From: an uncultured Verrucomicrobiota bacterium
Lineage (GTDB): Bacteria > Verrucomicrobiota > Kiritimatiellia > CAIQIC01 > Lenti-01
Assembly: GCA_964399775.1 (NCBI GenBank)
Contig: CAYNSH010000001.1
Coordinates: forward strand, 56,370 to 120,369
Length of the DNA: 64,000 nt
Direction of reading: 5' to 3'
Below are positions 2,428 through 41,988 of the stretch, piece by piece (position 1 is the stretch's first letter; the number at the start of each line of letters is the position of its first letter). Below the pieces are notes generated by a model. It saw only the letters and a program-made list of their open reading frames with translations, searched no databases and was not told the DNA's origin. The position numbers and the translations under genes were made by a program.

Positions 2428-4308
2428 ATGAACAAGACAAGTCCTGTTTTGAAGAAAGCGGTCGCCGCCGGGCTGGCCGCGCTGGTGTCGATCCCGGTCT
2501 GGGCCGCGCCCCGGACCGGCGAATCGATTGTCGCGGTGCAGACGGGCCGGGCCGAGGCGCGCGTGTTTACCGGCCCGGTGCATGAGGGCCGGACGCAAAA
2601 GCGGAACCTGCACGAGGGGGCATCCGTCGGGGAAACCAGCCAAGTTATGACGGGGCGCGACGGGCGCCTCTGCCTGATCTGCTCGCCCGGGGCCATCTTG
2701 TGCGTGGCACCCAATACCTCGTTCACCTTCGATCAACTTCGGCATACCGCCGACGGGCTGCCGCGCCGCGAAGACGACCTGATTCGCCGCATCCATTTGG
2801 ACCTCCAGCGCGGCCGCATCCGCGTCCAGGCGCCCACGCCGGTGCCCACGCTGGATATCCGCATCACGACACCGGCCGGTCGGATTGAAGCCCAGGGCGG
2901 GGCGTTTGTCGTGGCCCAGGGAAGCGATCGGCGCTGGAACGTCTATTGCGATTCGGACGAATTGACCCTCGTGCCGCGCGATGGCGAGCCCGTTCGCTTG
3001 TCCGCCGGCGATTCCGCGCAGTTCTGGATCAATGAAGACGGCGAAGTGGAAGTGCGCCTGGGCGTTGACGTGGATCCGGATCTGTACCACTTCGAGGTCT
3101 GCAACGCGTTCTTCGAGGATCTGGAGCCGTTCATTGACCAGGAACGCCGCTTCGACCGGGCCGGGTTGGACCGCTACCTGGGCGGCAGCACGCCGATCCA
3201 GGTGCTGGACGACGGAGCGCTGGTCACGGATGTCAGTCCGACCATCCGTCCCTCCGTGGCGGGCCTGACGGTGCCCTCCTTGCCGCCGGGCGGCGGCGAT
3301 GAAGTTGGCGGCCGCTGGGGCGACCAGCGGATCTGGCAGTGGTATGAGCAGATTGGCGTCGTCAAGGGCGTAAACTACATCCCCCGCACCGCGGTCAACT
3401 CCGTCGAGATGTGGCAGCACGACACCTTCGATCCCGAGACCATCGACGAAGAACTCGGCTGGGCCGCCCGCATCGGCTATACGGCCCTCCGCGTCCAGCT
3501 TCAGGTTGCGGTCTGGCAGGACGATTCCAAGGGGTTCCTCGACCGGGTGGACCGGTTCCTCGACCTCGCGGCCAAGCATGGATTGCGAGTCGTTTTGGTG
3601 CTGTTCGACGATCTCGATAGGGCCGGCCAGCCGCCTCAAGTCGGTCCCCAGCCCCCGCCGGTCGAAGGCGAACACAACGCCCGCTGGGTGCCAAGCCCCG
3701 GCGCGGCAGCGGTCAAGGATCGCACCCAATGGGCCGGGCTGGAGCAGTACGTGAAGGACGTGATGGAGAAGTTCAAGCGCGACCGGCGCGTGCTCTACTG
3801 GGACCTCTACAACACGGCCGGCAATGCCGGATTGTGGGAAGATACGCTGCCGCTGCTGGACCAAACCTTCCAGTGGGCGCGCGCGGTCGACCCCTCCCAG
3901 CCCCTGGCCGTGGCGGTCTGGAAGGATTTTGGAAGCGCCATGGCCGCGCGCAAGTTGGAGCGTTCGGACCTGATCACATTCCAGAGCTTCGACAACGTGG
4001 AGAGCATCGAGGCGCGCTTGCTCGCGCTGCAGCGCTATAACCGGCCGATCATCTGCTCGGATTGGCTGATGCGGCAAGTGGGCAACAATTTCGAGAAGGT
4101 GCTGCCGGTGTTCGCCACCTACCGGGTGGGCTGGTTTAACCAGGGGTTGGTCAGCGGCAAAACCCATCGCTTTGTTCAGGACGCGCGCTATCGGGTGGAG
4201 ACCAGCCCCGACGTCTGGCAGCAGGACGTGCTGCAGAAAGATGGAACTCCCTATAGCGAGACGGAAATCGAATTGATCCAGGGATTCCAGTTCCTCGACA
4301 CCCCTTGA
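2428..4308 (+). CDS. Secreted protein with a FecR-like N-terminal domain and a GH5-like (TIM-barrel) glycoside hydrolase domain.
   Basis: Signal peptide MNKTSPVLKKAVAAGLAALVSIPVWAAP. GVNYIPRTAVNSVEMWQ…EELGWAARIGYTALRV are cellulase-family motifs. AAAGG lies upstream of ATG 2428. Confidence 0.6.
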   Translation: MNKTSPVLKKAVAAGLAALVSIPVWAAPRTGESIVAVQTGRAEARVFTGPVHEGRTQKRNLHEGASVGETSQVMTGRDGRLCLICSPGAILCVAPNTSFTFDQLRHTADGLPRREDDLIRRIHLDLQRGRIRVQAPTPVPTLDIRITTPAGRIEAQGGAFVVAQGSDRRWNVYCDSDELTLVPRDGEPVRLSAGDSAQFWINEDGEVEVRLGVDVDPDLYHFEVCNAFFEDLEPFIDQERRFDRAGLDRYLGGSTPIQVLDDGALVTDVSPTIRPSVAGLTVPSLPPGGGDEVGGRWGDQRIWQWYEQIGVVKGVNYIPRTAVNSVEMWQHDTFDPETIDEELGWAARIGYTALRVQLQVAVWQDDSKGFLDRVDRFLDLAAKHGLRVVLVLFDDLDRAGQPPQVGPQPPPVEGEHNARWVPSPGAAAVKDRTQWAGLEQYVKDVMEKFKRDRRVLYWDLYNTAGNAGLWEDTLPLLDQTFQWARAVDPSQPLAVAVWKDFGSAMAARKLERSDLITFQSFDNVESIEARLLALQRYNRPIICSDWLMRQVGNNFEKVLPVFATYRVGWFNQGLVSGKTHRFVQDARYRVETSPDVWQQDVLQKDGTPYSETEIELIQGFQFLDTP

Positions 4309-5606
4309 TGCGACTCTCCGCCTCCATCCGCACCTTGCTGGCGCTGGCCGTCCTGTCGACGCCGTCCATCGGCTTCGCGATCGGCGACAGCTTTTCGGAT
4401 GGGTTCTACACGCGCGGCGTCGAGGCCGCGAGCTACATCGATCAGGGCGGGGCCATCTATGATCCCTTTTACCTCCCGGTCCAGTCGTGGTCGCTCCTGC
4501 CACGCGTGTCCTTGACCGTCACGCACGAGGACAATGTGTTTCTCGAGCCGGAAGATGGCACGGCGAACACATCGGTGGCCCTGGTTCCCGGCCTGTTGGC
4601 GGTCTGGGGCCGGCCGGCGAACAACCACGTCTATGCCGACTACGGCGCCCGCTTCTCGCTGTATGAAAGCGAGGGCGAGGTGAACGACCGTCCCAGCCAC
4701 ATGCTGCGGCTGGGCGCCGTCTATCGCACGGGCAAGAGCCAGATCCAGGCGCAGGCCGGCTTCCGGCATGCGGAGGAAGCCGACGAAGTGCTGGGCGCGC
4801 GCGTGACCAAACGCAATTACAGCCTTGGGCTCGGCGCCGAACACCGGCTCAACGGCAAGAGCAGCCTGGGGCTTCAAGGCAACGTGGAACGCCACGAATA
4901 CGATGCGGAGCGCTACATCGACTACGATCGCATCTATGGCGCCGGACGCTACTACCGCCGCCTGACCCCCAAGAGCCAGGGTTTTGTCCAGGGGGGAATC
5001 GGCCGCGACGAACCGCATCGGTCCGAATATTCCGCCAGCGCCGCGGATTTTTATGACGTGTCGCTGGGGGTGCGCGGCAAGCAGACGCCCAAGATCGGCG
5101 CCGTCGGCCGGGTCGGCTACATGTGGCGGCTCTATGACGATGAGCATCGCGGCGACTACGAAAACTGGGTGGCTTCCTTGCGGGCCAGCAGTTCGCCCTT
5201 CGGTCTGACCACCCTGTCCGCCGAGCTGTATGCCGACATCACTCCGGCGGTCGACGCCGACGGGGTCGATGCGGTCAACCGCGGCTTGACTCTCAAGGCC
5301 AATCGGCGGTTATTCTTTGAACGGCTGCGTGGCAGTGGCTCCTTCACCCTCGGCCAAACGGAATATGTCGGCTTGTCGTCGGGTGCGGATGACGATGCCG
5401 GCACGACCAAGCCTCGCGACGGTCGCACCGACGATTATTGGGGCTTCTCCCTGGGCGTGGATTGGTGGACCAAGAAAAACGTCTCGGTGGGCCTGGCCTA
5501 TTCCTACACGCGCCGGGAGGGCAGCCGGGGCGACGACGCCGAAACACGCCGCGCAACTTCCTACGAATCCGGCCGCTGGACCTTGCGGGTCAGTTGGAAC
5601 TACTAA
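4305..5606 (+). CDS. Outer-membrane beta-barrel protein of the kind associated with polysaccharide export loci.
   Basis: Signal peptide, alternating amphipathic strands, and a C-terminal aromatic end …RVSWNY. ATGA overlap with the upstream gene. Confidence 0.6.
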   Translation: MMRLSASIRTLLALAVLSTPSIGFAIGDSFSDGFYTRGVEAASYIDQGGAIYDPFYLPVQSWSLLPRVSLTVTHEDNVFLEPEDGTANTSVALVPGLLAVWGRPANNHVYADYGARFSLYESEGEVNDRPSHMLRLGAVYRTGKSQIQAQAGFRHAEEADEVLGARVTKRNYSLGLGAEHRLNGKSSLGLQGNVERHEYDAERYIDYDRIYGAGRYYRRLTPKSQGFVQGGIGRDEPHRSEYSASAADFYDVSLGVRGKQTPKIGAVGRVGYMWRLYDDEHRGDYENWVASLRASSSPFGLTTLSAELYADITPAVDADGVDAVNRGLTLKANRRLFFERLRGSGSFTLGQTEYVGLSSGADDDAGTTKPRDGRTDDYWGFSLGVDWWTKKNVSVGLAYSYTRREGSRGDDAETRRATSYESGRWTLRVSWNY

Positions 5607-5651
5607 AATCCGGCATTCCCAGCCAGTCCGGGGTGTGGTAAGAAAAACGCG

Positions 5652-6689
5652 ATGGCCATGAATCCGTTTATGCGAAGAAAAGGCGTGCGCGCCTGGCTGC
5701 TCGGTGCGGCCATCGGGTGGCTGGCGGGCTGCGCCACGCCGGACTTCGGCCCCATGCCGCCAGGCGAGGTGGAGGGTGAGCCGGCGGAGACCCTCGATGC
5801 TTCGCTTCTGTTCCCGGGGGACTACCTCGATTCGCTGTCGAAAGAGGAAGCGGAAGAACCGCTCGGACAGGGCGTCACCCTTCTGCAGGACAAGGACTAT
5901 GTCGCCGCTATTCCCTACCTGGAGCGGGCGCTTCATCGCCAGCCCGAGAATGTACTCATCCTGGAGGCGCTTAGCCTGTGCCTCTATCAAACGGGCCAGC
6001 TGGATCGAATCACCGATCTGTGGGAGCGGCATCTGGAGCAGCAGCCGGACTCCCCAAAAGCCGACGAGTGGCTTGCCCGGGTCCACGAAGCCCGCATCGC
6101 GCCGGCTACCGAGCAAGGCAGGTCGCTGGCCGGGGACGAAGAAATGGCGGAATCCATGCCGCTCGGCGAAGATCCGTATTATTCCGGATATCTGCTCCAG
6201 ACCGGCGACGAGATCGACATCCAGATTTACCGTGAATTGGACCTGTCTGGCCCCTTCCGGATTACGCCCGCGGGCGACATTCGCCATCCGCTGGTGGGCG
6301 CCGTCCCGGTCGCCGGCAAAACCCTCAAGCAGGCGGAAGCCGACTTCACCGCTCTTCTGGCCCGGGATTTCCTCGTCAATCCCCGGGTCATCTTCAAGAT
6401 GCTTTCCACGCAAAGCTCGCAAATCGTCCTCCTGGGCGAGGTGCGCAAGCCCGGTGTGTATCCGCTGCCGGTGGGGGAGCCCATAACTCTGCTGCAGGCG
6501 GTGGCGGGCGCGGGCGGCTTCACCGATCTCGCCAGCCCCGACCGCGTGCGGATCGTTCGCCGTCTGCCGGACGGCCGGACGACCACGATCCGGGTGCGGG
6601 TTTCGCGCCTCCTGTCCGGCCGGGGACGCCAGGAGGACATGACCCTGGAAGCCAACGACGTCATCATGGTGCCGGAAGTGTTGTTTTAA
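5652..6689 (+). CDS. wza: Polysaccharide export lipoprotein, Wza family (Poly_export plus SLBB), with an N-terminal TPR-like segment.
   Basis: Lipobox LAGC. PLVGAVPVAGKTLKQAEADFTALLARDFLVNPRV…VLLGEVRKPGVYPL matches the Wza/GumB family. Confidence 0.75.
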   Translation: MAMNPFMRRKGVRAWLLGAAIGWLAGCATPDFGPMPPGEVEGEPAETLDASLLFPGDYLDSLSKEEAEEPLGQGVTLLQDKDYVAAIPYLERALHRQPENVLILEALSLCLYQTGQLDRITDLWERHLEQQPDSPKADEWLARVHEARIAPATEQGRSLAGDEEMAESMPLGEDPYYSGYLLQTGDEIDIQIYRELDLSGPFRITPAGDIRHPLVGAVPVAGKTLKQAEADFTALLARDFLVNPRVIFKMLSTQSSQIVLLGEVRKPGVYPLPVGEPITLLQAVAGAGGFTDLASPDRVRIVRRLPDGRTTTIRVRVSRLLSGRGRQEDMTLEANDVIMVPEVLF

Positions 6690-6690
6690 C

Positions 6691-8847
6691 ATGCCCGCCT
6701 CCCCCTTCATCGCCACGGAACGCCCCGGCCCCGACGAGCCCGCCAAGTCCTTCGACTGGCGCGAAATGGTGGCCATTGTCATGGAGCGTGCCTGGCTGGG
6801 GGTCGCGGTGTTTGCCGCGGTGTTCCTCTTCTTCACGTTCCAGGCGCGACGCCAGACACCGATTTACCGCAGCACCGCCACCCTGCTGGTGGAAGCGCAG
6901 ATCCCGCGGGTGCTGAACTACCAGGATGTCATGGCCTTCAACCTGCGCAGCCTCGAATATTTCAACACCCACATCAACGCGCTGCACAGCCACACCATGC
7001 TGGAACGGGCGCTCGAGCAAAGCGGACTGGCCGATCATCCGGGATTCTTTCCGGAGATCGAGTCGCGCGCCGGCAAGATCGGCGCGGCCCGCCGGCTGGT
7101 CGCCATTACGCCCATTGAAAAAAGCCGGATGATCCGGATTGTCGTGGAACATCCCGACCCCGCCATCGCCAGCGCCCTGGCCAATGCCATGGCCCGGGCC
7201 TACATCCAGCAGGATCTCGACAACCGCATGGGCACCACGATGGAGGCCGTCGAATGGCTGCGCGCCCGCGCCGAGGAATACCGCGCAAATCTCGAGGCCG
7301 GATTGCTTCAGCTTCAGCAATACCGCGAGGAAACCGGATCGGTCTCGCTCGAGGATGACCAGAATATCGTCATCGAAAAGCTGAAGGCCCTGAACAGCTC
7401 GCTGACGGGCGCGCAAACGGAACGCATTCGGGCCGAAACGGAATGGCAGGCCATTCAATCCCAACTGGCGGATGGGGTCCCGCTGGAGAACATCGTCCCC
7501 CTGCTGGGAGACGGTAGTCTTCAAGAAGCCCTCCGCCGGCTCCAGGAACAGCAGCGCGACGTGGCCCGCCTGCAACAGCGCTATCGCTCACGGCATCCGG
7601 ACTTGGAACAGGCGGTCGAATTGGAACAGAAACTCCAGCACCAGTTCGATCAGGCCGGTAGCAACGCCGTCCATGCCCTCCAAAGCCGGGTGGAGATGTT
7701 GGTGGACCGGGAACGCAACCTTCAGAAGGCGCTTCGGGAGCAGGAACAGGAAGCGTTCGATCTCGACCGGAAATTAGTCCGCTACAACGAACTCAAGCGC
7801 AACGTCGAAGCTGACCAAAGCATCCACCAGGCCGTCATTGCCCGCATGCGCGAAACCAGCATGTCGGAATCGACCCCGTCGGAAATCATCCGCCTGGCCG
7901 AAGAGGCCAGCCCGGGCCGGGTGCCGGTGCGTCCCAACTTGCGGCGGGAAATGATGCGCGGCGCCTCGTTCGGACTGGTGCTCGGGTTTGGCGCCATCTT
8001 CCTGTTCTACTACCTGGACCATCGCTTCCGCCGCAACGAAGAGGTCGAACGGTTGCTGGGCATTCCCGTCGTGGCCACCGTTCCCTTGATTACCGGCAAA
8101 ACGATTGCGGACCGCAGTACCGTGGCGGACCGCAAGCCTTCCGGCGAGGAAGCCGAAAGTTTTCGGACGCTTCGCGCCAGCCTGCTGTTGCGCGACGAGG
8201 TTCGCAAAGCCAAGGTTCTGATGATCACGAGTTCCGGCCCCGGCGACGGCAAGTCGCTGGTGGCCTCCAATCTGGCGATCAGCCTCGCGCAAGATGGTCG
8301 CCGGGTCCTGTTGGTGGGATGCGATCTGAGGCGCCCAATCTTGGATCGGGTATTTTCCGCCCCCTCCGATAAGCCGGGGCTCTCCGAGGTGCTGAAGGGC
8401 CAGGTGTCCTGGCCGGAGGCCTTGCGCCGCCAGGTGTTTATTCATCTCGACCTGCTGTCTTCCGGCTCGATTCCCTCCCACCCGTCGGAACTGCTGGGCA
8501 AACGCGCGTTCGTAGACCTGCTGGCCGAAGCGCGGGAGTTGTATGACCACGTGTTGATCGATGCGCCGCCAGTGCTGGGCGTGAGCGATGCGCTCGTCCT
8601 GCTGCCCAACATGGATGGCGTGTTGTTCATCGTGCGCTACGGCGCCACCCATAGCCTGGGCGCCAAGCATGCCATGGTCAAAATCCAGGCCAGCGGGACG
8701 CCCTGCCTGGGATGCGTCATGAACGGGGTCAATCTCAAATCCCTGGCCAACTACTACTACTATCGCCGCTACGGGGGCTATGCGTACCAACAGTACCAGG
8801 CTCACCCCTCCGCCCTCGGAGAAGCGGACCATCGCACCGAATCATGA
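6691..8847 (+). CDS. wzc: Polysaccharide co-polymerase / BY-kinase (Wzc/EpsB family, PCP-2a).
   Basis: N-terminal TM and Wzz-like domain with coiled coil. Walker A ITSSGPGDGKSLVASNLA, DxD, and a C-terminal Tyr-rich tail YYYYRRYGGYAYQQYQ. Confidence 0.8.
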   Translation: MPASPFIATERPGPDEPAKSFDWREMVAIVMERAWLGVAVFAAVFLFFTFQARRQTPIYRSTATLLVEAQIPRVLNYQDVMAFNLRSLEYFNTHINALHSHTMLERALEQSGLADHPGFFPEIESRAGKIGAARRLVAITPIEKSRMIRIVVEHPDPAIASALANAMARAYIQQDLDNRMGTTMEAVEWLRARAEEYRANLEAGLLQLQQYREETGSVSLEDDQNIVIEKLKALNSSLTGAQTERIRAETEWQAIQSQLADGVPLENIVPLLGDGSLQEALRRLQEQQRDVARLQQRYRSRHPDLEQAVELEQKLQHQFDQAGSNAVHALQSRVEMLVDRERNLQKALREQEQEAFDLDRKLVRYNELKRNVEADQSIHQAVIARMRETSMSESTPSEIIRLAEEASPGRVPVRPNLRREMMRGASFGLVLGFGAIFLFYYLDHRFRRNEEVERLLGIPVVATVPLITGKTIADRSTVADRKPSGEEAESFRTLRASLLLRDEVRKAKVLMITSSGPGDGKSLVASNLAISLAQDGRRVLLVGCDLRRPILDRVFSAPSDKPGLSEVLKGQVSWPEALRRQVFIHLDLLSSGSIPSHPSELLGKRAFVDLLAEARELYDHVLIDAPPVLGVSDALVLLPNMDGVLFIVRYGATHSLGAKHAMVKIQASGTPCLGCVMNGVNLKSLANYYYYRRYGGYAYQQYQAHPSALGEADHRTES

Positions 8848-10193
8848 TGCGCCTGATGTCTTCAGTCCGGTTGCTCTTGCTGCTGGGTTTGATGGGAGCA
8901 TGCGTGGGGCCCCTGCCCATTCCCGATCCCGGGCGTATCTGGGTCGTCCCCATTCTGGCCGTGCTGGCCGGCGCCGGTTTGCTGGTGGATCGCCGTCTGC
9001 CCGCCCGGATCTGGGCCGCCGCCGCCGCCGTTCTCGGGTTGCTGGCGCTGTATGCGGCCAACCCCTCCCACCGCTGGGCCGATGGAATCGGCTTGCTGCC
9101 CATCGACCATTGGACGGTTCTGCCCGCCGCCGCTTTTCGGGCGGGCGCCTGGCAGGTCATGACCTTGGCCACCGGCTTGTTGGCGGCGTATGCCTTGGCC
9201 TTTCGGCTTTCCGCCCGCCAGCGGCAAGCGCTGCTGGTCATCGCGACGGCCGGCGCCGTGGCCATGGCCATCGGGGTTTGGATTCAGCGGCTCGAGCCGC
9301 GTCGCCATCCGATCTATGAGCTGACCGGCGTTTTTGTGAATGAAAACCACTTTGCGGTGTTTGCCAACCTGCTATTGCCCGGGGTGCTGGCGCTGGCTTC
9401 GCGCGCACGGTTTCGGGCGGTTCAGTCGGGTAGCCTGTCGAGCCCGGCGGGACTCTTTTGGTTGTCCGGCGTGCTGCTGGCTGGCGCGGTGGTCCTGAGC
9501 CGGTCCCGGGCCGGCGTGGCTGTGATGGCCCTGCTGGTGTTGCTTCATGTTTGGCGCTGCCGGCGCCTGGTTCGGCAGTTTCCCTTCATGGATACGCCGG
9601 CCGCCGCCCGGTGGCGCGGTCTGGGCTGGTTGGCGGTTGCGGGCGCCGCGGCACTCGCGCTCGCCACCTTGACTCGTGAGTGGCGCTCAACGGGGGATCT
9701 TGTGCGGGAAGGGCATTTCCGCCTCGGCATGGCGAGGGATACCCTCCACATGTGGCGCGACCAGCCGACATGGGGCATCGGCCCGGGATCCTTTACAACG
9801 GTGTTTCCGTACTACCAATCGGACCTGTTTCGCGGCCGAACAATCCTGCATGCGCATTCCGAGCCGGTCCAGACGCTGTCCGAATACGGCTGGGCCGGCG
9901 TGCTCTGGTTGGCTGGCTTCGTGGGGCTGGCCCTGTCGGCCCGTCCTCGCGGCAACCCTCCTTCCGCAAATGGGGCGGCCGAAATCCCCGCCTTTGCCGA
10001 TCTGGAGCGTTCCGCGCTCGCGGCGGGCCTGTTGGCTCTGGTGCTTCACAGTTTAATCGACTTCCCCCTGCGCATCCCGCTGATCACAATGATCGCCGCG
10101 ACCTGGGCCGGCTTGTGGGCCGCCAGCCGCCCGCGGGAGGGCGCAGGCATCCCCGGGGATGCCGAACCGTCAACGGGAGGACCGTCGACATGA
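8844..10193 (+). CDS. O-antigen ligase / Wzy-like polymerase family membrane protein.
   Basis: Multipass membrane protein with the Wzy_C-like loop …LSRSRAGVAVMALLVLL…. The start is at codon 45 of ORF 8712, where ATGA overlaps the wzc stop. Confidence 0.6.
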   Translation: MMRLMSSVRLLLLLGLMGACVGPLPIPDPGRIWVVPILAVLAGAGLLVDRRLPARIWAAAAAVLGLLALYAANPSHRWADGIGLLPIDHWTVLPAAAFRAGAWQVMTLATGLLAAYALAFRLSARQRQALLVIATAGAVAMAIGVWIQRLEPRRHPIYELTGVFVNENHFAVFANLLLPGVLALASRARFRAVQSGSLSSPAGLFWLSGVLLAGAVVLSRSRAGVAVMALLVLLHVWRCRRLVRQFPFMDTPAAARWRGLGWLAVAGAAALALATLTREWRSTGDLVREGHFRLGMARDTLHMWRDQPTWGIGPGSFTTVFPYYQSDLFRGRTILHAHSEPVQTLSEYGWAGVLWLAGFVGLALSARPRGNPPSANGAAEIPAFADLERSALAAGLLALVLHSLIDFPLRIPLITMIAATWAGLWAASRPREGAGIPGDAEPSTGGPST

Positions 10194-11037
10194 AACCGTC
10201 GAGTAGATCCCAGCGGCCGATCGAGGTGGTGCGGCGGCCTCGGCACGGATGGTTTGACCTGGCGCTGGGCGAACTCTGGGCCTATCGCGACCTGCTGGGA
10301 ACGCTGGTCTGGCGCAACCTGACCGTGCGCTACAAGCAGAGCGTGATCGGCATTGCCTGGGCCATCCTCAAACCCGTCATGCAGATGATCGTTTTCAGCG
10401 TGGTGTTCGGCCGCCTGGCCAACCTGCCGTCGGACGGCATGCCCTATCCGATCTTCCTCTATGCCGGCCTGCTGCCGTGGACCTATTTCACCTCCACCAT
10501 CACCAGCGCCTCCGGCAGCCTCATCGGCGGCGGCAACATGATCAACAAGGTCTATTTTCCCCGCATGATCCTGCCGTTCTCCTATCTCTTCACCGGGCTG
10601 ATCGACTTGGCGCTGTCCATGCTGGTCCTGTTCGGGATGATGGCATGGTATCGCGCCGAGATGGTCTTCGGCCTGCAGATGCTGCTGTTTCCCGTGTTCC
10701 TGCTGCCGGCCATCGCCTTCGCCGGCGGCCTGTCGCTGTGGCTTAGCGCCACCGCCGTGCGCTATCGCGACATCCACCACCTGGTCCCGTACCTGCTCCA
10801 GATCGGCATGTTCGTCACGCCCGTGGTCTATGCCGTCAAGCTGCTGCCCGCGCGGTTCCAATGGCTGCTGCAGCTCAACCCTATGACCGGCGTCGTCGAA
10901 GGCTTCCGCTGGGCCCTGCTGGGCAAGCCCGTGCAAGGGTGGGGCATGATGGGCGCGGGCTTCCTGATTTCGCTCCTGCTGCTGTTTTCCGGAATGGTCT
11001 ATTTCCGGCGCGTGGAACGCACCGTGGCGGACATCAT

Positions 11038-11041
<4 letters not shown>
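10190..11041 (+). CDS. wzm: ABC-2 type polysaccharide exporter permease (Wzm/KpsM/TagG family).
   Basis: Six TM helices. WAYRDLLGTLVWRNLTVRYKQSVIGIAWAILKPV is the ABC-2 signature. GGGAGG lies 9 nt upstream, and ATGA overlap. Confidence 0.8.
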
Positions 11042-12305
<1,264 letters not shown>

Positions 12306-12309
<4 letters not shown>

Positions 12310-13331: not shown

Positions 13332-13698
13332 TGGGATAGAGCGGGAAATGATCATCGCTGGAACAAACCATCATGTTTTCGTGGATGGCTTGGGCGACAA
13401 TCAGCCGGTCGAACGGGTCCCGGTGATGAAAGGGGAGGTCGTTCAGCCCGCACAGGTGGGGTGGCTCGATGGGCAGATTCCGGAACCCCTCGGCCAGTCT
13501 TTTCGAGATGAACCGTTCGAGCGGATCGTCCAAGACCAATTTGCCCAGGCTGCACTTGATGGCGATTTCCCACCACGAGGCCATGCTGATGAACACCGTC
13601 GTGTCCGAGTCTTCGATGGCGGCTCGCGCCGTCGGACTCAGCCGTTCGTCTCCCCCTGCAAACCAGAGCAGGGCATGCGTATCCAGCAGCAATTTCAT
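13315..13698 (-). CDS. vapC: PIN-domain toxin VapC (type II TA).
   Basis: MKLLLDTHALLW…D…E…D are the PIN acidic residues. Paired with an upstream Phd/YefM antitoxin through a 4-nt overlap. Confidence 0.8.
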   Translation of the reverse strand: MKLLLDTHALLWFAGGDERLSPTARAAIEDSDTTVFISMASWWEIAIKCSLGKLVLDDPLERFISKRLAEGFRNLPIEPPHLCGLNDLPFHHRDPFDRLIVAQAIHENMMVCSSDDHFPLYPIKVIW

Positions 13699-13922: not shown

Positions 13923-14010
13923 GCAACTAGTCTAACCGACTGGTCTGTTATTTGCAAGGGGCTTCTTCCTGTGGGTAAACCGATGCTTTTGTTGATGTAA
14001 TTATTTGTCT

Positions 14011-30399: not shown

Positions 30400-30401
30400 G
30401 C

Positions 30402-35327: not shown

Positions 35328-35902
35328 CCCAACCCAATCCTCCATCCCGGGTCCGCGTGGACCGGGCCGCCTGTCCGAGTCCCCATTCCCGGGCGAACCA
35401 ATGGGCGCGCCTGCTCTGGCAGGCGGCGTGGCTGTTTCTGTTTCGCCCGGTCCCCTGGTTCTGGCACGCCCCCCGGCGCTTGCTGCTGCGACTCTTCGGC
35501 GGGCGTGTGGGGCGAGGCGTGCAGATCATGCCCTCGGCGCGGATCTGGGCTCCGTGGAATCTGGCGCTGGGCGACTACGCCACCATCAGCCACGGCGTAG
35601 ACCTCTACAGCGTGGATCGCATCGAGATCGGCGCCCACGCCACCATCAGCCAGCGCGCGTTCCTCTGCACGGCCACGCACGACGTCGATCATCCGAACAT
35701 GCCGCTCGTCACCGCGCCCATCGACATCGGCGATGGCGCGTGGGTCTGCGCCGAGGCCTATGTGCATCCCGGGGTGTCCATCGGCGCCGATGCCGTCGCC
35801 GGCGTGCGCGCCGTCGTGCTGCACGACGTGCCGCCGGGGCAGATCGTGGGCGGCAACCCCGCAAAATTCCTGCGGATGCGCAATCTCCCGGAATCGGGGT
35901 GA
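35324..35902 (+). CDS. Hexapeptide-repeat (LbH) acetyltransferase, WcaF/NeuD-like.
   Basis: Repeating [LIV]G-x4 hexads: IGDGAWVCAEAYVHPGVSIGADAVAGVRAVV. ATGA overlap. Confidence 0.75.
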   Translation: MTQPNPPSRVRVDRAACPSPHSRANQWARLLWQAAWLFLFRPVPWFWHAPRRLLLRLFGGRVGRGVQIMPSARIWAPWNLALGDYATISHGVDLYSVDRIEIGAHATISQRAFLCTATHDVDHPNMPLVTAPIDIGDGAWVCAEAYVHPGVSIGADAVAGVRAVVLHDVPPGQIVGGNPAKFLRMRNLPESG

Positions 35903-35905
35903 ACG

Positions 35906-36739
35906 ATGGCGGAGCCGGTCCCCATCTCGGCGGTGGTGTTATCGCACAACGAGGCGGCCAACCTGCCGCGCTGCTTGCGCGCCTTGCGCGGCTGCGCCGA
36001 GATCGTTGTCGTGGACGACGGCAGCACCGACGACAGTCCGCGCATCGCCGCCGACTGCGGCGCGCGCGTCGTGGCGCACCCGTTCACCTCTTTTGCCGAC
36101 CAGCGCAACTGGGCGATGGCGGAAGCCGGGTTGCACAACGCCTGGGCACTGCATTTGGATGCCGACGAAGTGATCACGCCGGCGCTGCTAGAGGAGATCC
36201 GCGCGCGGCTGGCGTCGATGGCGCCCGGCGCGGCCGGTTTTTTCGCCCGCAAGGTGATGCTGGGGGAGAAGTGGCTGAAACACAGCGCGGACTATCCGGT
36301 CTTTGTGCCGCGCCTCCTCCACCGCGACGGCCCGCGCTTCGCCATGCGCGGCCACGGCGACGTGCTCGCGTCCGAGCCGGCCGAATCGGTGTTCTTCGCC
36401 GAGCCCATGCTCCATTACAATTTTTCCAAGGGCTGGGCGGACTGGCGCGCGCGGCACCGGCGCTATGCCGCCGCCGAAGCCACGCGCATCCGCAGCGGGG
36501 CGGCTCCGCTTTCCCTGCGCGCGCTGGTTTCCGGAAACCGCACGGCGCGCCGTTCCGCCTTGCGCGCGCTGTCCTACCGATTGCCCGGTCGCCCCATCCT
36601 TCGTTTCCTGTATGCCTATGTGGTTCGCCTGGGATTCCTCGATGGCCGGGAGGGACTGCAGTTCTGCCGCGCCATGGCCGCCTATGAACGCATGATCGAC
36701 CGTGCGCTCCGGTCGCCGTCCGAAACCGCCGCGCCATGA
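35906..36739 (+). CDS. Family 2 glycosyltransferase.
   Basis: ISAVVLSHNEAANLPRCL…VVVDDGSTDDS…LDADE. Confidence 0.7.
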   Translation: MAEPVPISAVVLSHNEAANLPRCLRALRGCAEIVVVDDGSTDDSPRIAADCGARVVAHPFTSFADQRNWAMAEAGLHNAWALHLDADEVITPALLEEIRARLASMAPGAAGFFARKVMLGEKWLKHSADYPVFVPRLLHRDGPRFAMRGHGDVLASEPAESVFFAEPMLHYNFSKGWADWRARHRRYAAAEATRIRSGAAPLSLRALVSGNRTARRSALRALSYRLPGRPILRFLYAYVVRLGFLDGREGLQFCRAMAAYERMIDRALRSPSETAAP

Positions 36740-37938
36740 ACCTTGTGTTGATCAACCAGTTCTTTCCCCCGGCGCAGGCCCCGACCGGAATCCTGCTGGC
36801 GGACCTTGCCGATGAACTGTCCCGGCGCGGCCACACCGTGACCGTGATCGCCTCGGCGGCGGGCTATGGCGCCGAGGCGGGGGGGACGGCGGGTGCCGCC
36901 CCCGGCGTCCACGTGGTGCGCGTAGGTCCGGCGCAGCGCCATCGCAGCGGGCTCGCGGCGAAAGCGCGCGACTATCTCGGATTCTACCGGTGCGCCTGGC
37001 GCGCGCTGCAAGGTCTGCCGGAACGGCCCGACGTCCTCGTGTTCATGACCACGCCGCCGTTCATCGGCCTGATCGGCGCGCATCTGCGAAAGCGCCGGGG
37101 CATTCCCTATGTCCTGTGGAGCATGGATCTCTATCCCGAAGCCCTTGCGGCCCATGGGGTCCTGCGCGATTGGAATCCCCTCAAGCCCCTCCTGCGCGGA
37201 CTGGCCCGCATCGAACGGGGCCGCGCCGCATGCGTGGTGGCCCTCGGCCCGGACATGGCCGCCCGCCTGGACGCTTCCGGCGCATCGCGCGTGGAAACCG
37301 TGCCCGTGTGGAGTTCCCTGTCCGCGACGCCCGACGCGCAGACCTCGGCCCGCGCCCTGCGCCGCGCGCGCGGTTGGGCCGACGACGACATCGTCCTGCT
37401 CTACAGCGGCAACATGGGCCGGGCCCACCGCGCGGAGGAATTCGCCGCGCTGGCCGAACACCTGCGCGGACAGGCCCCGCGCTGCCGGTTCGTGTTCGCG
37501 GGCGATGGCCCGCAGCGCGCCGGATGGGAGCGGCGGTGGGGGGGGGTCTTCGAATTCGGTCCGGCCGTTCCCGGAGAGGCCGTGGTGGCCCATCTGCTCG
37601 CGGCCGACGTGCATCTGGTTTCCCAGCAGCCCGAGTGGCTGGGCGTGGTGGTGCCGAGCAAGTTCCAGGCCGCCTGCGCCCTCGGCCGTCCCACCGTCTT
37701 TGCCGGGCCGCCGCAAAGCTCCATCGGCGGTTGGCTGTCGGAGGCCGATGCGGGCTGGCTCCTGCCGCCGGGCGATGCCGCTGCCATCGGGATGGCGGCG
37801 GAGGGCATCCTCGATGCGCCCCTTCGCGCTGAAAGGGGCGCGAAGGCCGCCCGGTTGTTCGAACGGCGGTTTTCGAAATCCGCGAATGGTGGTAGACTGG
37901 CCGAGTTGGTCGAATCCGCGGCGAAAGAGAATCCATGA
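36736..37938 (+). CDS. Family 4 glycosyltransferase (WcaI-like). Contains a G9 homopolymer at 37538-37546.
   Basis: MNLVLINQFFPP…GT-B fold. ATGA overlap. Confidence 0.7.
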   Translation: MNLVLINQFFPPAQAPTGILLADLADELSRRGHTVTVIASAAGYGAEAGGTAGAAPGVHVVRVGPAQRHRSGLAAKARDYLGFYRCAWRALQGLPERPDVLVFMTTPPFIGLIGAHLRKRRGIPYVLWSMDLYPEALAAHGVLRDWNPLKPLLRGLARIERGRAACVVALGPDMAARLDASGASRVETVPVWSSLSATPDAQTSARALRRARGWADDDIVLLYSGNMGRAHRAEEFAALAEHLRGQAPRCRFVFAGDGPQRAGWERRWGGVFEFGPAVPGEAVVAHLLAADVHLVSQQPEWLGVVVPSKFQAACALGRPTVFAGPPQSSIGGWLSEADAGWLLPPGDAAAIGMAAEGILDAPLRAERGAKAARLFERRFSKSANGGRLAELVESAAKENP

Positions 37939-39842
37939 CGCTCGAAGCCATCCTGAAATATCCCGCAGTATTCCTGGCGGGCCTGCTGGCCGCGCTGGTG
38001 GTGACGCCGCTCTGGCGGCGCCTTGCGCCGCGCCTGGGCTTTCTCGATCGTCCGGGCGAGCGGAAAATCCATCGCCAGGCCGTGCCGCGCGGCGGCGGCC
38101 TCGCGCTGTTCATCGGCTTCCATGTAGCCTGCGCCATCGTCTTCCTCGTGCCGTGGAAGCCGTTTGCGGGTCAACTGTCCATCGGCTGGTGGTTTCGCTT
38201 CCTGCCGCTGAGCGCGGGGGTGGTGGCGCTGGGCCTGCTCGACGACCGGTTCGACTTGAAGCCGCTGACCAAACTGGCGGGGCAGATCGCGCTGGCCGCC
38301 GCCACCTATGCCCTCGGCATCCGGCTCCAAAACATCCTGGGAATGGCTATGCCCGGCTGGGTGGATTTCGTCGCCACCCTCTTCTGGTTTGTCGCGCTGA
38401 TGAACGCCTTCAACCTGATCGACGGGCTCGATGGCCTGGCCACCGGCATCGCCCTGATCGCCGCCACCGGCATCGGGCTTTCGCTGGTATTTCGCGGCGA
38501 ACCCGGCGATGTGCTGCTGTTCATGGGCTTTGCCGGCGCCTGCCTCGGGTTCCTGCGCTACAATTACTACCCCGCCAATGTGTTTCTGGGCGATACCGGC
38601 AGCCTGTTTCTGGGCTTCACCTTGGCGGCCTTGTCGATATCGACGAACTCGAAAGCCTCGTTCATGGCCGGCATCGGCGTCCCGATGCTGGCCGTTGGCG
38701 TGCCGCTGTTCGACGCGGTGCTGGCCGTTTGGCGCCGCACCGCCCGCCGCCTTCTGTCCCGGGCCCCCGGAGAGGATGAAGCGCCGGGAATCGAGCGGGC
38801 CGATGCCGACCACCTGCACCACCGCCTCCTGAAGCGGGGGCGCGGCCAACATCAGGTGGCCTGGCTGCTCTATGCCGCCACCTTTGCCCTGGTGATCGTG
38901 GGGCTGCTGGCCAGTATCTTCAACGACCGCGCCCTCGGAATCCTGGTTCTGGCCTTCCTGCTGGCCGCCTACACCATCGTTCGCCACCTGGCCGACATCG
39001 AATTGCGCGAAAGCGGCAAGGTCGTGTTGCAGGGGCTTTCCCGTCCCGTCCGCCGCAATCGAACCCTGATCCTCTACCTGTTCGGAGATCTCCTGATCCT
39101 GAGCCTGGCTCTTCTCGCGGCCCACTATCTGTTGCAGGGGCAGGACCGCCTGTCGGATGTCTGGCTCAAGCGGGTTTGGCTGCGCGCCGGTCCCCTGGAT
39201 GTCTTCATCCCCTTCGCCTTGCTGCTGCTGTTTCGCTCCTACTCCCGCGTCTGGTATCTCGCGCGCGTGTCGGAATATGCCGCCACCGGCCTGGCGGTGG
39301 TGCTGGGCTATGCCGTCGCTTTCGGGGTACGTTGGCTGGGCGCGCCGGACCCCGCCGGGGCGGGGCATTCGGTCATCCGCTATTTCCTGATGGCCGGCAT
39401 GGCCGCGCCAGCCATCGTCATGACCCGCGCCGCTTTGCGGATGGTGCAAGACTACATGCCTCGATTGCTGCACGGCGTGGCGGCGCCCGGTGGCGCGCCG
39501 CCCGTGCGGGCCCTGGTTTGCGGCGCGGGATACCGCACCACGCTTTTCCTGCGCGAAATCGCTTTCCGAATCCGCGATCAAGTGCCGTTGGAGATCGTCG
39601 GCTTGATCAGCGAAGATCCGGCCATTGCCGGCCACGACGTCCACGGCATCCGCGTCCTCGGCACCTGCCACGAACTGCCCGCGCTGATCCGGCTCCATCG
39701 CGTGGATACCCTGTATCTGGTCGAACCCGTCGACGAGGTAGGCCTCCAGCAGATATTTCGCTTGTTGCAACAAGTGAAATTGCGTGTCATCCGCTGGGAC
39801 ATCGTCGAGACGGAACTGTCGACTCATGAGAACATACCGTAA
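37935..39842 (+). CDS. Initiating polyprenyl-phosphate sugar-1-phosphate transferase (WecA/MraY/WbpL family) with a C-terminal CoA-binding-like extension.
   Basis: NAFNLIDGLDGLATG and NVFLGDTGSLFLGF are the MraY/WecA motifs. 11 TM segments. The C-terminus has LVCGAGYRTTLFLREI…. Confidence 0.8.
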   Translation: MTLEAILKYPAVFLAGLLAALVVTPLWRRLAPRLGFLDRPGERKIHRQAVPRGGGLALFIGFHVACAIVFLVPWKPFAGQLSIGWWFRFLPLSAGVVALGLLDDRFDLKPLTKLAGQIALAAATYALGIRLQNILGMAMPGWVDFVATLFWFVALMNAFNLIDGLDGLATGIALIAATGIGLSLVFRGEPGDVLLFMGFAGACLGFLRYNYYPANVFLGDTGSLFLGFTLAALSISTNSKASFMAGIGVPMLAVGVPLFDAVLAVWRRTARRLLSRAPGEDEAPGIERADADHLHHRLLKRGRGQHQVAWLLYAATFALVIVGLLASIFNDRALGILVLAFLLAAYTIVRHLADIELRESGKVVLQGLSRPVRRNRTLILYLFGDLLILSLALLAAHYLLQGQDRLSDVWLKRVWLRAGPLDVFIPFALLLLFRSYSRVWYLARVSEYAATGLAVVLGYAVAFGVRWLGAPDPAGAGHSVIRYFLMAGMAAPAIVMTRAALRMVQDYMPRLLHGVAAPGGAPPVRALVCGAGYRTTLFLREIAFRIRDQVPLEIVGLISEDPAIAGHDVHGIRVLGTCHELPALIRLHRVDTLYLVEPVDEVGLQQIFRLLQQVKLRVIRWDIVETELSTHENIP

Positions 39843-39941: not shown

Positions 39942-41099
39942 ATGCCAATGCAAGAGTCTAACCCAGTCGCTCGTCTGCTGGTCAACGCGCTCTCGGTGAC
40001 GAACCAAAGCGGCCTGCATGTGCTCCTGGGCCACATGGACCAGGTGGCGGACGCCCTGGCCGGAAGCGTCCGGCTCGTCGTGGTGTGCCGCAAGGACATG
40101 GCCGGCTTGCGCCGCGGGCTGGAGGGCCGCGCGGACTGGGAATTCGCGCCCGCCGCGACCCGCCGTTGGCTGTTCCGCGCCGCGTGGGAGCGAGTGAACC
40201 TCGCGCGGATCGCGCGCCGCCACCAGGCGTTCGCCTATTTCACTCCCAACGGCATCGCCGCGCATCTGCCACCGCAGATCAAGCAAATCGTTTTCTGCCA
40301 GAATCCCTGGGCGCTGGTGTCCGCCGCCCGCCGCCGGCGGGATGCGCCCAAGGCGGGACTCCAGCGCCGCGCCTATCGCCGCGCCATGCGCGTGGCGGAG
40401 GCCATGGTCTTCAACTCCCGCTACATGCAGGAGGCTTACCGCGCCAACGCCGGCTTCGAGGAAAAGCGCGGACTCGTCGTCCACCAGGCCGCGGACGACG
40501 CCGTCCGGGCGCGCGCCACGGAGGCGGCGGACATTCCGCGCCGGCGCGAACAGATCCTCAGCGTCTCCGCCATGGCGCCGCACAAGAACGCCGAGACGCT
40601 GGTGCGGGCGATTGCCATCGTCCGCACCACGCAACCGCAAGCCCGCCTCGTGCTCGCCGGTGCCTGGCCCGATGCCGGATACGAGCGCAGAATCCGTAGG
40701 TTGGCCGCGGCCATCGACCAGGGCGACGCCGTCGAATTCACTGGCCACGTCTCGCGGGAAAAGCTGGATCAACTGTATGCCGAGTCGCGCGTGTTTGGCC
40801 TGATGAGCCGGTGCGAATCGTTCGGCATTCCCGCCATCGAGGCGCAGCTCTTCGGGATCCCCGTCGTCACCTCCACCGTCTGCGCCATGCCCGAGATCGG
40901 CGGCGCCGGCGGGGTCTACCGCGATCCCGACGACATTCCCGGCATCGCCGCCGCGCTGAACCGTTTGCTCGACGACGACGCGGAGTGGGCGAGGCTTTCG
41001 GCCTTGGCCCGGATCAACGCAGAGCGTTTTGCCTGGAGCCGTTGCTCCCGCCCGCTGGTGGATCTCTTCGCGGAACTGGCCGGGGTGGTGGATACGTGA
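39942..41099 (+). CDS. Family 4 glycosyltransferase.
   Basis: …VFGLMSRCESFGIPAIEAQLFGIPVVTSTVCAMPEIGG. Confidence 0.7.
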   Translation: MPMQESNPVARLLVNALSVTNQSGLHVLLGHMDQVADALAGSVRLVVVCRKDMAGLRRGLEGRADWEFAPAATRRWLFRAAWERVNLARIARRHQAFAYFTPNGIAAHLPPQIKQIVFCQNPWALVSAARRRRDAPKAGLQRRAYRRAMRVAEAMVFNSRYMQEAYRANAGFEEKRGLVVHQAADDAVRARATEAADIPRRREQILSVSAMAPHKNAETLVRAIAIVRTTQPQARLVLAGAWPDAGYERRIRRLAAAIDQGDAVEFTGHVSREKLDQLYAESRVFGLMSRCESFGIPAIEAQLFGIPVVTSTVCAMPEIGGAGGVYRDPDDIPGIAAALNRLLDDDAEWARLSALARINAERFAWSRCSRPLVDLFAELAGVVDT

Positions 41100-41118
41100 A
41101 GAGGAGGTCGCAGATGGC

Positions 41119-41988
41119 ATGAGAACAACGATGAACCCAAAATGGCGGTGGGCCTTGTGTGGACTGGTCCTGGCCGCGGGGCTGTCGGCGGGTTGCAGCG
41201 GCAGCAATGACGACGAGGAGGATCCCGTCCTGGATGGATTGGGGGCCGGCGACGCCGGGAATCCCCTGGCCGCCTATTTCCCCGATGGATTGCACCCCAA
41301 CAGCAAGGCGAACGACATCATCGCGGGGCAGTTTGCCAAGCATATTCCTTCCGCCGGCAAGTCGGCAGCCAGGAACGGGGCGGATGCCGGCGGCGATGCG
41401 CCGGCCGAAGTTGATGACGTGGCTGGACTGCCCGACGGCGACGACGCCGGCGGGGATCCGGGGGGAACCACCGACGGGGAATCGGCCGGCGGCGCCCAAA
41501 CGGGCGGCGGTGACCAGTCGGGCGGTGGCGACGGGGGGGCAGGCGGAGGAACCTCGCCCCCCGCGGGCAACACCGGTTCGGTGGTCTGCCTGGGCGACAG
41601 CATTACGCAGTCGGGGTATCCCGATGTCTTGGCCCGCCGGACCGGACGGGCCGTGATCAATGCGGGAATCGCCGGGGAAGCCAGCGGTCGGGGCGCTCAA
41701 CGCGTAGAGGCCTTGCTGTCCACCTATCGCCCCTCCTATCTGTGTGTGCTATATGGCGCCAATGACGTGATCGGCGGCAAGGCCACTCCCCAGGAAGTGG
41801 CCGCCAATCTGGAATCGATCGTCCGGGCGGCCCGGGCCAACGGAACGGTGGTCATTGTGGGGACCCTGACCCCGATGTCCGGCCGTCGCGAGCCGTATGC
41901 CAACGATGCCCGCGCGGTCAGCGCCGCCATCCGTTCCATGGTCTCCCGCAGCGGAGCGCGTCTGGCCGACCTGGAAAAGGCCTTCTGA
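41119..41988 (+). CDS. Secreted lipoprotein SGNH/GDSL hydrolase with a Gly/Asp-rich linker.
   Basis: Lipobox LSAGC. VVCLGDSITQSGYP…LYGANDV. Confidence 0.65.
   Translation: MRTTMNPKWRWALCGLVLAAGLSAGCSGSNDDEEDPVLDGLGAGDAGNPLAAYFPDGLHPNSKANDIIAGQFAKHIPSAGKSAARNGADAGGDAPAEVDDVAGLPDGDDAGGDPGGTTDGESAGGAQTGGGDQSGGGDGGAGGGTSPPAGNTGSVVCLGDSITQSGYPDVLARRTGRAVINAGIAGEASGRGAQRVEALLSTYRPSYLCVLYGANDVIGGKATPQEVAANLESIVRAARANGTVVIVGTLTPMSGRREPYANDARAVSAAIRSMVSRSGARLADLEKAF

Follow-up and report, generated by a model that had tools for sequence, protein, structure and literature searches.

A surface-polysaccharide locus of uncultured Kiritimatiellia that joins a Wzm/Wzt exporter to a short OPX/beta-barrel module and contains no recognisable Wzx

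A DNA stretch of 64,000 nucleotides from an uncultured Verrucomicrobiota bacterium of the class Kiritimatiellia (assembly GCA_964399775.1, contig CAYNSH010000001.1, positions 56,370 to 120,369), hereafter called the window, carries at positions 2428–41988 a surface-polysaccharide cluster of ~40 kb. In an initial annotation, this cluster had been described as a hybrid that combines the outer-membrane polysaccharide export (OPX) protein Wza and the polysaccharide co-polymerase (PCP) Wzc with a Wzm/Wzt ABC exporter and two Wzy-like membrane proteins, and every component named there is indeed present. The cluster is real and is kept across a clade of uncultured Kiritimatiellia; its parts are familiar and their combination is moderately unusual.

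Gene content of the locus

The GC content of the window is ~65%, and raw lists of its open reading frames (ORFs) are rich in shadow frames. Gene calls from GC content at third codon positions (GC3) alone proved too ambiguous, and frame plots together with Pfam were used instead. As such, the gene map rests on codon-position GC, start/stop junctions and profile searches against Pfam and NCBIfam. The genes that matter most for the question of polymer export are the following:

2428–4308, plus strand: head protein with a signal peptide, a FecR-like beta-sandwich and a C-terminal GH5-like TIM barrel without the NE motif
4305–5606, plus strand: outer-membrane beta-barrel, candidate partner of the short OPX protein (EpsX/WzpX-like role; Pfam BBP2_2, E 3e-9)
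5652–6689, plus strand: class-3 (D1D2-only) OPX lipoprotein with an N-terminal TPR extension (Poly_export, E 1e-16; one SLBB; TPR)
6691–8847, plus strand: PCP-2a co-polymerase with a bacterial tyrosine kinase (BY-kinase) domain, Wzc (Wzz/GNVR and P-loop)
8844–10193, plus strand: Wzy_C-family membrane protein, polymerase or ligase (Pfam Wzy_C, E 3.5e-15)
10190–11041, plus strand: Wzm, ABC-2 permease (ABC2_membrane, E 1e-19)
11038–12309, plus strand: Wzt, ATPase with a C-terminal carbohydrate-binding domain (ABC_tran, E 5e-24; Wzt_C, E 1.9e-13)
33930–35327, plus strand: 465-aa membrane protein with ~11 transmembrane segments and a predicted WaaL/Wzy/SEDS fold (no Pfam match; AlphaFold/Foldseek)
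37935–39842, plus strand: WecA/MraY-family polyprenyl-phosphate N-acetylhexosamine (HexNAc)-1-phosphate transferase of 635 aa (Glycos_transf_4, E 2e-34)

The barrel gene, which the gene list of the initial annotation had omitted, lies directly upstream of the OPX gene; its product has a signal peptide, ends in an aromatic residue (...WNY) and matches the NCBIfam models EpsL and TIGR03016 below threshold. The OPX protein carries an LAGC lipobox and terminates after D2, at residue 345, so that it lacks D3 as well as D4, the outer-membrane helix, both of which are found in Escherichia coli Wza, and its NCBIfam matches (EpsE, pepcterm_export and EpsY) are likewise sub-threshold. Its N-terminal half is variable among loci, with the TPR extension of the window being absent from the protein of locus L006 (231 aa) and longer in that of L005 (484 aa), and the conserved part is the Poly_export/SLBB half only (55–75% identity between the window and other loci). 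The PCP scores 144 bits and above the cut-off with TIGR01007, and E 1e-49 to 1e-51 with the Wzc and Etk models. From its Walker A (SSGPGDGKS), A' (VGCDLRRP) and B (LIDAPP) motifs and its C-terminal tyrosine cluster NYYYYRRYGGYAY, it is predicted to be a canonical BY-kinase.

An OPX protein without D3 and D4, a syntenic barrel and a PCP are what characterises a composite translocon, and this trio is kept in all relatives and in Lentisphaera. Barrel, OPX and PCP are thus predicted to make a composite "class-3 OPX / beta-barrel" translocon as in Myxococcus xanthus, where the pairs EpsY/EpsX and WzaB/WzpB operate with BY-kinase PCPs (PMC9601211, PMC9603273, PMC12819527). The likeness extends to the short D1D2 OPX lipoprotein that lacks an outer-membrane helix, the adjoining barrel gene and the kinase-bearing PCP, and EpsY, EpsE and EpsL are the best NCBIfam matches, if below threshold. 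The Myxococcus systems, in contrast, depend on Wzx/Wzy and possess a Wzx, whereas the window locus encodes Wzm/Wzt without a Wzx, adds a TPR stretch to the N-terminus of its OPX protein and has a FecR/GH5-like protein as the first member of the module. A PEP-CTERM/exosortase (XrtA/XrtB) locus was also considered and rejected, as the TIGR030xx matches stay far under their cut-offs (EpsL 31 versus 275, EpsE 89 versus 263), and profile scans found no exosortase in the window.

Wzm and Wzt appear to be of the undecaprenyl-pyrophosphate (Und-PP) O-antigen type. The Wzt_C domain (PF14524) reaches 51 bits against a cut-off of 30.4 and is found in the relatives too. The closest solved structures are Aquifex aeolicus Wzm (E 2.3e-17) and full-length A. 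aeolicus Wzt (8dku, E 4.5e-64), followed by TarGH and the mycobacterial Wzm/Wzt, and the ABC-transporter entries 8tsh and 8tsi, which we take to be KpsMT, score much lower. The locus holds two features of cap-dependent ABC export of O-polysaccharides, namely Wzm with Wzt and a carbohydrate-binding domain at the C-terminus of the latter, as in the E. coli O9a WbdD/Wzm/Wzt system and A. aeolicus Wzm-Wzt (7k2t, 8dku). It further shares with cap-dependent O-antigen export (background in PMC8892547) a WecA-type initiator, methyltransferase and kinase genes, and a Wzy_C-family protein of WaaL type. Candidates for a chain terminator are two Methyltransf_24 domains, an FkbM methyltransferase, two APH-family kinases and a P-loop protein, none of them a recognisable WbdD orthologue. 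Together with the Wzt_C domain and the methyltransferases and kinases encoded in the variable block, the likeness to A. aeolicus suggests that chains are exported in finished form, end-capped and on an undecaprenyl carrier. Unlike O-antigen pathways, however, which have no OPX protein, BY-kinase PCP-2a or barrel, the window couples these translationally to wzm/wzt. The combination of ABC exporter, PCP and OPX is also reminiscent of Group 2/3 capsule systems (KpsMT-KpsE-KpsD), but the transporter is nearer to Wzm/Wzt (42.8 bits with the NCBIfam KpsM model, cut-off 300), the PCP is a kinase-bearing PCP-2a instead of a PCP-3, the OPX protein belongs to class 3, the initiator is based on undecaprenyl phosphate (Und-P), and the KpsS and KpsC families are absent from the Pfam and NCBIfam scans of the window proteins.

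The Wzy_C-family protein has ~10 transmembrane segments with HAHSEP and WGIGPG motifs, and its gene is coupled by ATGA overlaps at both ends, to wzc and to wzm. HAHSEP is a WaaL-type motif, and ligation to lipid A-core is a putative role of the protein. The 465-aa protein has no Pfam and no meaningful NCBIfam match and belongs to a family of >170 homologue clusters, nearly all of them without Pfam annotation, whose invariant residues include CGRRKM, FWGYGLGMSQQG and WQESGP (homologues P0001–P0120). Its AlphaFold model, built with 43 homologues, reaches a pLDDT of 89 and a pTM of 0.90, and a Foldseek search against the PDB returns WaaL (7tpg) first (E 1e-6, TM-scores 0.50/0.56), with FtsW/RodA next. 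A divergent Wzx is ruled out by this fold, as WzxE (9g9m) matches with E 1.3 and a TM-score of 0.10 only. The protein is therefore predicted to be a second member of the WaaL/Wzy superfamily and not a flippase. The two families match weakly in a profile-profile comparison (E 0.13) that aligns SRSRAG with CGRRKM, WGIGPG with FWGYGLG and HAHxEP with WQESGP, and profile searches of both against PDB sequences gave nothing useful.

No MOP-family Wzx and no small GtrA- or EamA-like flippase ORF is found in any of the six frames of the 64-kb window, which bears out the statement of the initial annotation that no Wzx is recognisable. A six-frame hydrophobicity scan detected just four polytopic ORFs, that is, the Wzy_C protein, Wzm, the 465-aa protein and the WecA-like protein, and none of the intergenic gaps of the locus is long enough to hold a pseudogene. 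The same holds for the relatives: ~15 syntenic loci anchored on Wzy_C contain no MOP flippase or Polysacc_synt-type Pfam domain, and no flippase is encoded in the six complete or near-complete loci (the window, L005+L003, L006+L004, L026, L027 and L028). Additional membrane ORFs in the relatives' loci were dismissed as antisense shadows, except for a weakly PMT_2-like protein in L014. Literature searches turned up neither this locus nor a Wzc/Wzm/Wzt system that lacks Wzx. Of the parts of a Wzx/Wzy pathway, the window locus thus encodes a PCP-2a with BY-kinase, an OPX protein in its short class-3 form and two polymerase candidates of fitting fold or family, for which polymerase and ligase are inseparable by sequence; Wzx is missing from it and from the related loci, the stretches to which the search was confined.

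A single initiating transferase was found for the locus in the window. The WecA-like protein scores 113 bits with TIGR02380, which is sub-threshold, and its residues 384–618 match positions 2–218 of TIGR03025. It appears as a WecA-like initiator fused to a C-terminal extension of ~250 residues, similar to the N-terminal and central (CoA_binding_3-like) part of WbaP-type phosphoglycosyl transferases, an architecture of ~630 aa that is also seen in relatives.

The 14 start/stop overlaps listed in the initial annotation were all confirmed, and a further one lies at 30396. Overlaps of 4 nt link the genes for Wzc, the Wzy_C protein, Wzm, Wzt and the glycosyltransferase (GT) that follows. The idea of polycistronic expression throughout did not hold, however, as a minus-strand unit (20546–23900), a toxin-antitoxin insertion and a PDDEXK_3 insertion interrupt the locus. 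A promoter and terminator scan returned no more sites than are found in shuffled sequence.

At the head of the locus, the initial annotation had placed a GH5-like secreted hydrolase that might trim or release the polymer. The fold was read correctly. In Pfam, the protein matches FecR alone and under the cut-off (E 2.8e-4), and its sequence matches to GH5 are insignificant (E 0.13–0.6), but the AlphaFold (AF2) model (pLDDT 80) consists of an N-terminal beta-sandwich and a C-terminal (beta/alpha)8 barrel for which the top Foldseek matches in the PDB are all GH5 (best 9y4v_A, E 3e-10). The catalytic residues of GH5, Asn-Glu and Glu, are another matter. Among 17 orthologues, which share a conserved YWDLYNTAGN, the acid/base "NE" after beta4 reads N-T in nearly all and N-V in one, the histidine after strand 3 is substituted (VLFDD), D394/D395 are conserved, and the candidate beta7 nucleophile D545 is not invariant (Gly in L021). 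The more likely reading of the domain is a pseudo-enzyme that binds glycans, or else an enzyme whose mechanism is non-canonical, and trimming of the polymer is doubtful because the canonical acid/base glutamate is missing.

Conservation and modularity among relatives

A Wzy_C alignment scan of species-representative genomes yielded 19 loci, onto which the window proteins were mapped by tblastn (numbers with the prefix L denote related loci). Homologues of the Wzy_C, 465-aa and head proteins all stem from metagenome-assembled genomes (MAGs) of uncultured Kiritimatiellia, "Verrucomicrobia" or Lentisphaerae, often on shared contigs, and no cultured organism carrying the locus was found among the species-representative genomes scanned. 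The Kiritimatiellia of this clade live in anaerobic digesters and sediment.

The order head protein, barrel, OPX, PCP, Wzy_C, Wzm and Wzt recurs on every spanning contig, in ~15 species-level MAGs. At the distal end, a block made up of a GT4, the 465-aa protein, in some cases a further GT4, the LbH acetyltransferase and a GT2 is shared by all relatives that were examined. The right block of L003, L026 and L028 continues as in the window, with GT4, the WecA-like protein, GT4 and a minus-strand NTP_transf_5 gene, whereas L004 and L027 lack the WecA-like gene and differ in gene order. The NTP_transf_5 gene marks the right boundary in the window, L003, L004, L026 and L028 and is absent from L027. 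A compact version, that of L026 (~18 kb besides the left module), forms a one-strand chain of overlapping or nearly abutting genes that runs from Wzy_C, Wzm and Wzt through eleven GTs, the 465-aa protein and the WecA-like protein to the last GT4.

The locus is modular, with a conserved left secretion module, a variable middle and a conserved right block. The identity of Wzm is bimodal (75–94% within class A, 34–39% between class A and class B, the latter being represented by L005, L006, L007 and L015), whereas that of the PCP is unimodal (61–93%), as are those of head protein and barrel. L007 and L014, for instance, share 88% identity in the PCP and only 35% in Wzm. Because of this difference, the Wzm/Wzt cassette and the adjacent GTs appear to have been swapped from one lineage to another, in the manner of O-antigen loci, and the left and right blocks appear to be inherited vertically. 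Directly after class-A Wzt, the relatives carry the same STELLO-like GT as the window.

One export pathway or two

Surface-polysaccharide assembly is commonly taught as three schemes, namely Wzx/Wzy, ABC transporter and synthase. The locus merges the PCP-2a and Wzy proteins of the first with the Wzm/Wzt and cap-reading domain of the second, with no flippase inside. From our point of view, Wzm/Wzt is most likely the sole inner-membrane export step that is encoded, and the surface step is most likely the class-3 OPX/barrel under the BY-kinase PCP-2a. That all this forms one ABC-transporter-dependent pathway feeding the composite translocon is, in our estimate, the most likely explanation, if at no better than even odds.

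For such a pathway, we infer an order of events, an acceptor step and roles of the two Wzy-fold proteins as follows. The WecA-like enzyme would prime undecaprenyl phosphate with HexNAc-1-phosphate; the right-block GTs and the LbH acetyltransferase would then make a conserved adaptor, which the GTs of the variable middle block would lengthen in the cytoplasm. The chain would be capped by methyltransferases and/or kinases, and the cap would be recognised by the C-terminal domain of Wzt, with export of the Und-PP-linked glycan via Wzm/Wzt. Both WaaL/Wzy-fold proteins may act in the periplasm, by ligation to an acceptor and/or by joining of chains, before the glycan would exit through PCP, OPX and barrel. 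The periplasmic FecR/GH5-like head protein may bind the glycan or, less likely, trim it.

One pathway is supported by the absence of a flippase from ~15 loci, by translational coupling, by there being one initiator only and by the compact L026 operon. The Und-PP O-antigen type of Wzm/Wzt speaks for it too, and the methyltransferases and kinases of the variable block would do so by analogy with cap-dependent export. It has been reported that short OPX/beta-barrel couples adjoin ABC transporters in 14 of 453 cases (PMC9601211), and we count this in favour as well. So do we count the canonical capsule locus cps1 of the PVC bacterium Akkermansia muciniphila (PMC13343947). Like the window locus, this region of ~26 kb encodes Wza, Wzc, Wzy and many GT2/GT4 proteins; unlike it, cps1 holds WbaP, Wzb and its own Wzx and has no ABC transporter.

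Several points weigh against a single pathway. A BY-kinase PCP-2a together with Wzy-type proteins is a hallmark of Wzx/Wzy pathways. Two Wzy-fold proteins are conserved here, although an ABC pathway can do without a polymerase. In ABC capsule systems, the PCP is usually a kinase-less PCP-3 (PMC8892547). In Lentisphaera marina, the quartet of barrel, OPX, BY-kinase PCP and Wzy_C stands alone, with no GT, ABC transporter or flippase nearby, and in MAG UBA1418 (L021, 11225–14568) Wzy_C is the last gene of the left module, with tRNA-His and unrelated genes behind it, a junction that is possibly a recombination breakpoint or an assembly join. (The two ORFs after this tRNA are phospholipase-D-like and citrate-synthase-like judging by their translations only.) Because it occurs on its own in these two cases, the left module is not intrinsically tied to Wzm/Wzt. 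Lastly, the loci L006+L004 and L027 have no WecA-like gene, which means that essential genes, and so a Wzx, could lie elsewhere in a genome.

The main alternative, though less probable, is that two ordinary pathways are co-located, the Wzx being either encoded at some other site of the genome or borrowed from a further pathway. Taken jointly, the two would be (i) a cap-dependent ABC pathway for an O-polysaccharide, comprising Wzm/Wzt, the variable GTs and the methyltransferases and kinases, with one Wzy-fold protein acting as WaaL towards lipid A-core; and (ii) a Wzx/Wzy pathway for a capsule or exopolysaccharide, with the other Wzy-fold protein as polymerase besides PCP-2a, OPX and barrel. 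A PCP-2a with Wzy is after all the textbook signature of the Wzx/Wzy scheme, the barrel-OPX-PCP-Wzy_C module is independent in L. marina and L021, the ABC cassette recombines on its own, as seen from the bimodal Wzm and unimodal PCP, and the initiator is missing from L006+L004 and L027, so parts can be unlinked. A precedent exists in Vibrio cholerae O31 NRT36S, where a capsule/lipopolysaccharide region of ~46 kb unites wzm/wzt, wza/wzb/wzc and wzx/wzy and where wzm is required for the capsule (PMC1847822). The window resembles it in having wzm/wzt, wza/wzc and wzy in one region; unlike it, the Kiritimatiellia locus is without wzx and wzb, and its OPX protein is of the short class with a barrel partner. 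Two pathways would, however, leave it unexplained that a Wzx occurs in none of the ~15 related loci although all other components of both are linked there, that there is just one initiator, and that the L026 version is one chain of overlapping genes. The right block, moreover, is otherwise self-contained (initiator, GTs, acetyltransferase and Wzy-fold protein), and a Wzx would be expected there.

The initial annotation had offered two polymers or an unusual export route. Coupling, the one initiator and L026 favour one pathway, the standalone module, the swapped Wzm/Wzt and the initiator-less loci favour separable modules, and sequence data cannot by themselves separate the two possibilities. 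If a Wzx is found elsewhere, the locus is a co-location of two ordinary pathways. If a single pathway is integrated, PCP-2a/BY-kinase gating and Wzy-fold enzymes can operate downstream of an ABC exporter, which would also place some of the "unassigned" short-OPX/beta-barrel systems.

One could speculate further that the clade has a Wzx-independent line of export, in which Wzm/Wzt in the place of Wzx would deliver Und-PP-linked glycans to Wzy-fold enzymes that polymerise or ligate and to the BY-kinase PCP-2a, and from there to the class-3 OPX/barrel pore. We regard this as rather unlikely; if true, it would be a fourth wiring of the known parts of polysaccharide export. Beyond this question, the locus defines a Pfam-less family of predicted WaaL/Wzy fold, a conserved GH5-like probable pseudo-enzyme and what appears to be O-antigen-style swapping of Wzm/Wzt cassettes in an uncultured phylum.

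More unlikely still is a hybrid route in which Wzm/Wzt, replacing Wzx, would export capped Und-PP-linked blocks that a Wzy-fold enzyme in the periplasm polymerises further under BY-kinase/PCP-2a control, with secretion by way of OPX and barrel thereafter. It would be compatible with the lack of Wzx in the locus and the coupling of Wzc, Wzy_C, Wzm and Wzt, and would account for the retention of a polymerase-type protein and a BY-kinase PCP beside an ABC exporter in every species. However, Wzt_C implies finished, capped chains, a cap at the non-reducing end alone needs no further polymerisation, and the Wzy_C/PCP module of Lentisphaera has no ABC transporter next to it. We know of no precedent for an ABC transporter that feeds a Wzy-type polymerase. 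An artefact, either a chimeric metagenome assembly or mis-called genes, which might be suspected as all relatives are MAGs and the high GC content produces many shadow ORFs, is effectively refuted by the identical gene order in >15 independent assemblies from different projects, and every call is backed by Pfam domains and GC3 frame analysis.

Remaining genes, insertions and flanks

Apart from the genes given above, the locus and its right boundary comprise:

12306–13331, plus strand: STELLO-like GT (PF03385, E 8e-13)
13315–13922, minus strand: vapBC-like toxin-antitoxin pair, apparent insertion (PIN toxin at 13315–13698, E 9e-14, and a small upstream ORF)
14005–14967, plus strand: GT2 (Pfam; orthologues in relatives)
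14967–15989, plus strand: GT2/Glyco_transf_7C (Pfam; orthologues in relatives)
15986–17005, plus strand: conserved 339-aa GT-B-like protein (orthologues in relatives)
17036–18343, plus strand: tandem Methyltransf_24 (TylF-like) methyltransferase (PF13578, E 1e-29, two stretches)
18324–19322, plus strand: GT2 (Pfam)
19319–20470, plus strand: GT4 (Pfam)
20546–21670, minus strand: GT2 of the minus-strand unit (Pfam, E 2e-28; GC3 frame analysis)
21529–~22730, minus strand: APH-family kinase of the same unit (APH, E 8e-10; GC3 frame analysis)
22731–23900, minus strand: GT4 of the same unit (weak Pfam GT4 match; GC3 frame analysis)
24007–28466, plus strand: FkbM methyltransferase, Asn-synthase-like PP-loop protein, SGNH hydrolase and GT2 (Pfam/NCBIfam)
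28642–29019, plus strand: small PDDEXK_3 (GxxExxY-type) gene (PF13366, E 1.6e-42)
29254–32737, plus strand: GT4, P-loop protein and APH-like kinase (Pfam; NCBIfam matches weak)
32734–33936, plus strand: GT4 that opens the conserved right block (67–71% identity in relatives)
35324–37938, plus strand: LbH acetyltransferase, GT2 and GT4 of the conserved right block (68–77% identity in L003)
39942–41988, plus strand: GT4 and second SGNH hydrolase (Pfam)
42044–43126, minus strand: NTP_transf_5 nucleotidyltransferase, right boundary (PF14907, E 1e-27)

The number of GTs supported by Pfam or NCBIfam is 14, besides the initiator, instead of the ~16 estimated before; the WecA-like initiator itself was named correctly. 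The FkbM, tandem TylF-like, LbH and two SGNH decoration genes had also been recognised. The supposed AsnB-like amidotransferase, by contrast, matches asparagine synthase in the PP-loop region only, and no glutaminase-domain match was obtained with Pfam or NCBIfam. For the tandem methyltransferase, the tblastn matches in L007, L017 and L022 span only ~44% of the protein, which suggests single-domain versions in these loci. In the region of the minus-strand unit, the plus-strand ORFs 20687–21607, 21694–22764, 22800–23291 and 23364–24455 were rejected as shadow ORFs, as none of them has a Pfam match and coding is on the minus strand there.

The vapBC-like pair appears to be an insertion that stands outside the polysaccharide system. 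It sits between the STELLO-like GT and the GT2 after it, and an AT-rich stretch follows the pair. With tblastn, no match to the PIN toxin was obtained in the related loci, where the STELLO-like GT and the GT2 are spaced by 15–70 nt. The PDDEXK_3 gene is probably an insertion, too. It lies between two plus-strand blocks, in the part of the locus with the lowest GC content (0.596 over 28001–30000).

Directly upstream of the locus lies a cassette reminiscent of those for ribosomally synthesised and post-translationally modified peptides, consisting of PqqD, a radical SAM protein, a peptide of ~60 aa and a ScmC/HprK-related protein (window 3–2435; L005 1–2892; L006 767–3744). In the window, the ScmC/HprK-related protein is encoded at 427–1662, and its matches to TIGR04249 and TIGR04352 are sub-threshold. 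A small, divergent S24/S26 signal-peptidase-like gene follows on the minus strand (1959 to ~2435). Upstream of the head protein, the ScmC-like gene and then the minus-strand peptidase gene are found on every spanning contig, and in every relative with sufficient contig, while the PqqD, radical-SAM and small-peptide genes were, among the relatives, seen in L005 and L006 only. The NTP_transf_5 family at the other boundary is one that we presume to belong to HprK-related and lasso-peptide contexts. A tRNA-Ser(GGA) that ARAGORN places at 42997–43073 is likely a false positive, as it is too short (77 nt) for a class II tRNA and lies within the conserved N-terminus of the NTP_transf_5 gene on the opposite strand.

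Downstream, positions 45188–63590 are unrelated to the locus and hold a phenylacetate-CoA-ligase-like gene, an SDR, an ORF6N protein, a PPDK_N-domain protein (860 aa), a split MetH (51005–53674 and 53908–54705) and a pilus-like cluster from PilM to a secretin (55465–62390), together with a 5'-3' exonuclease.

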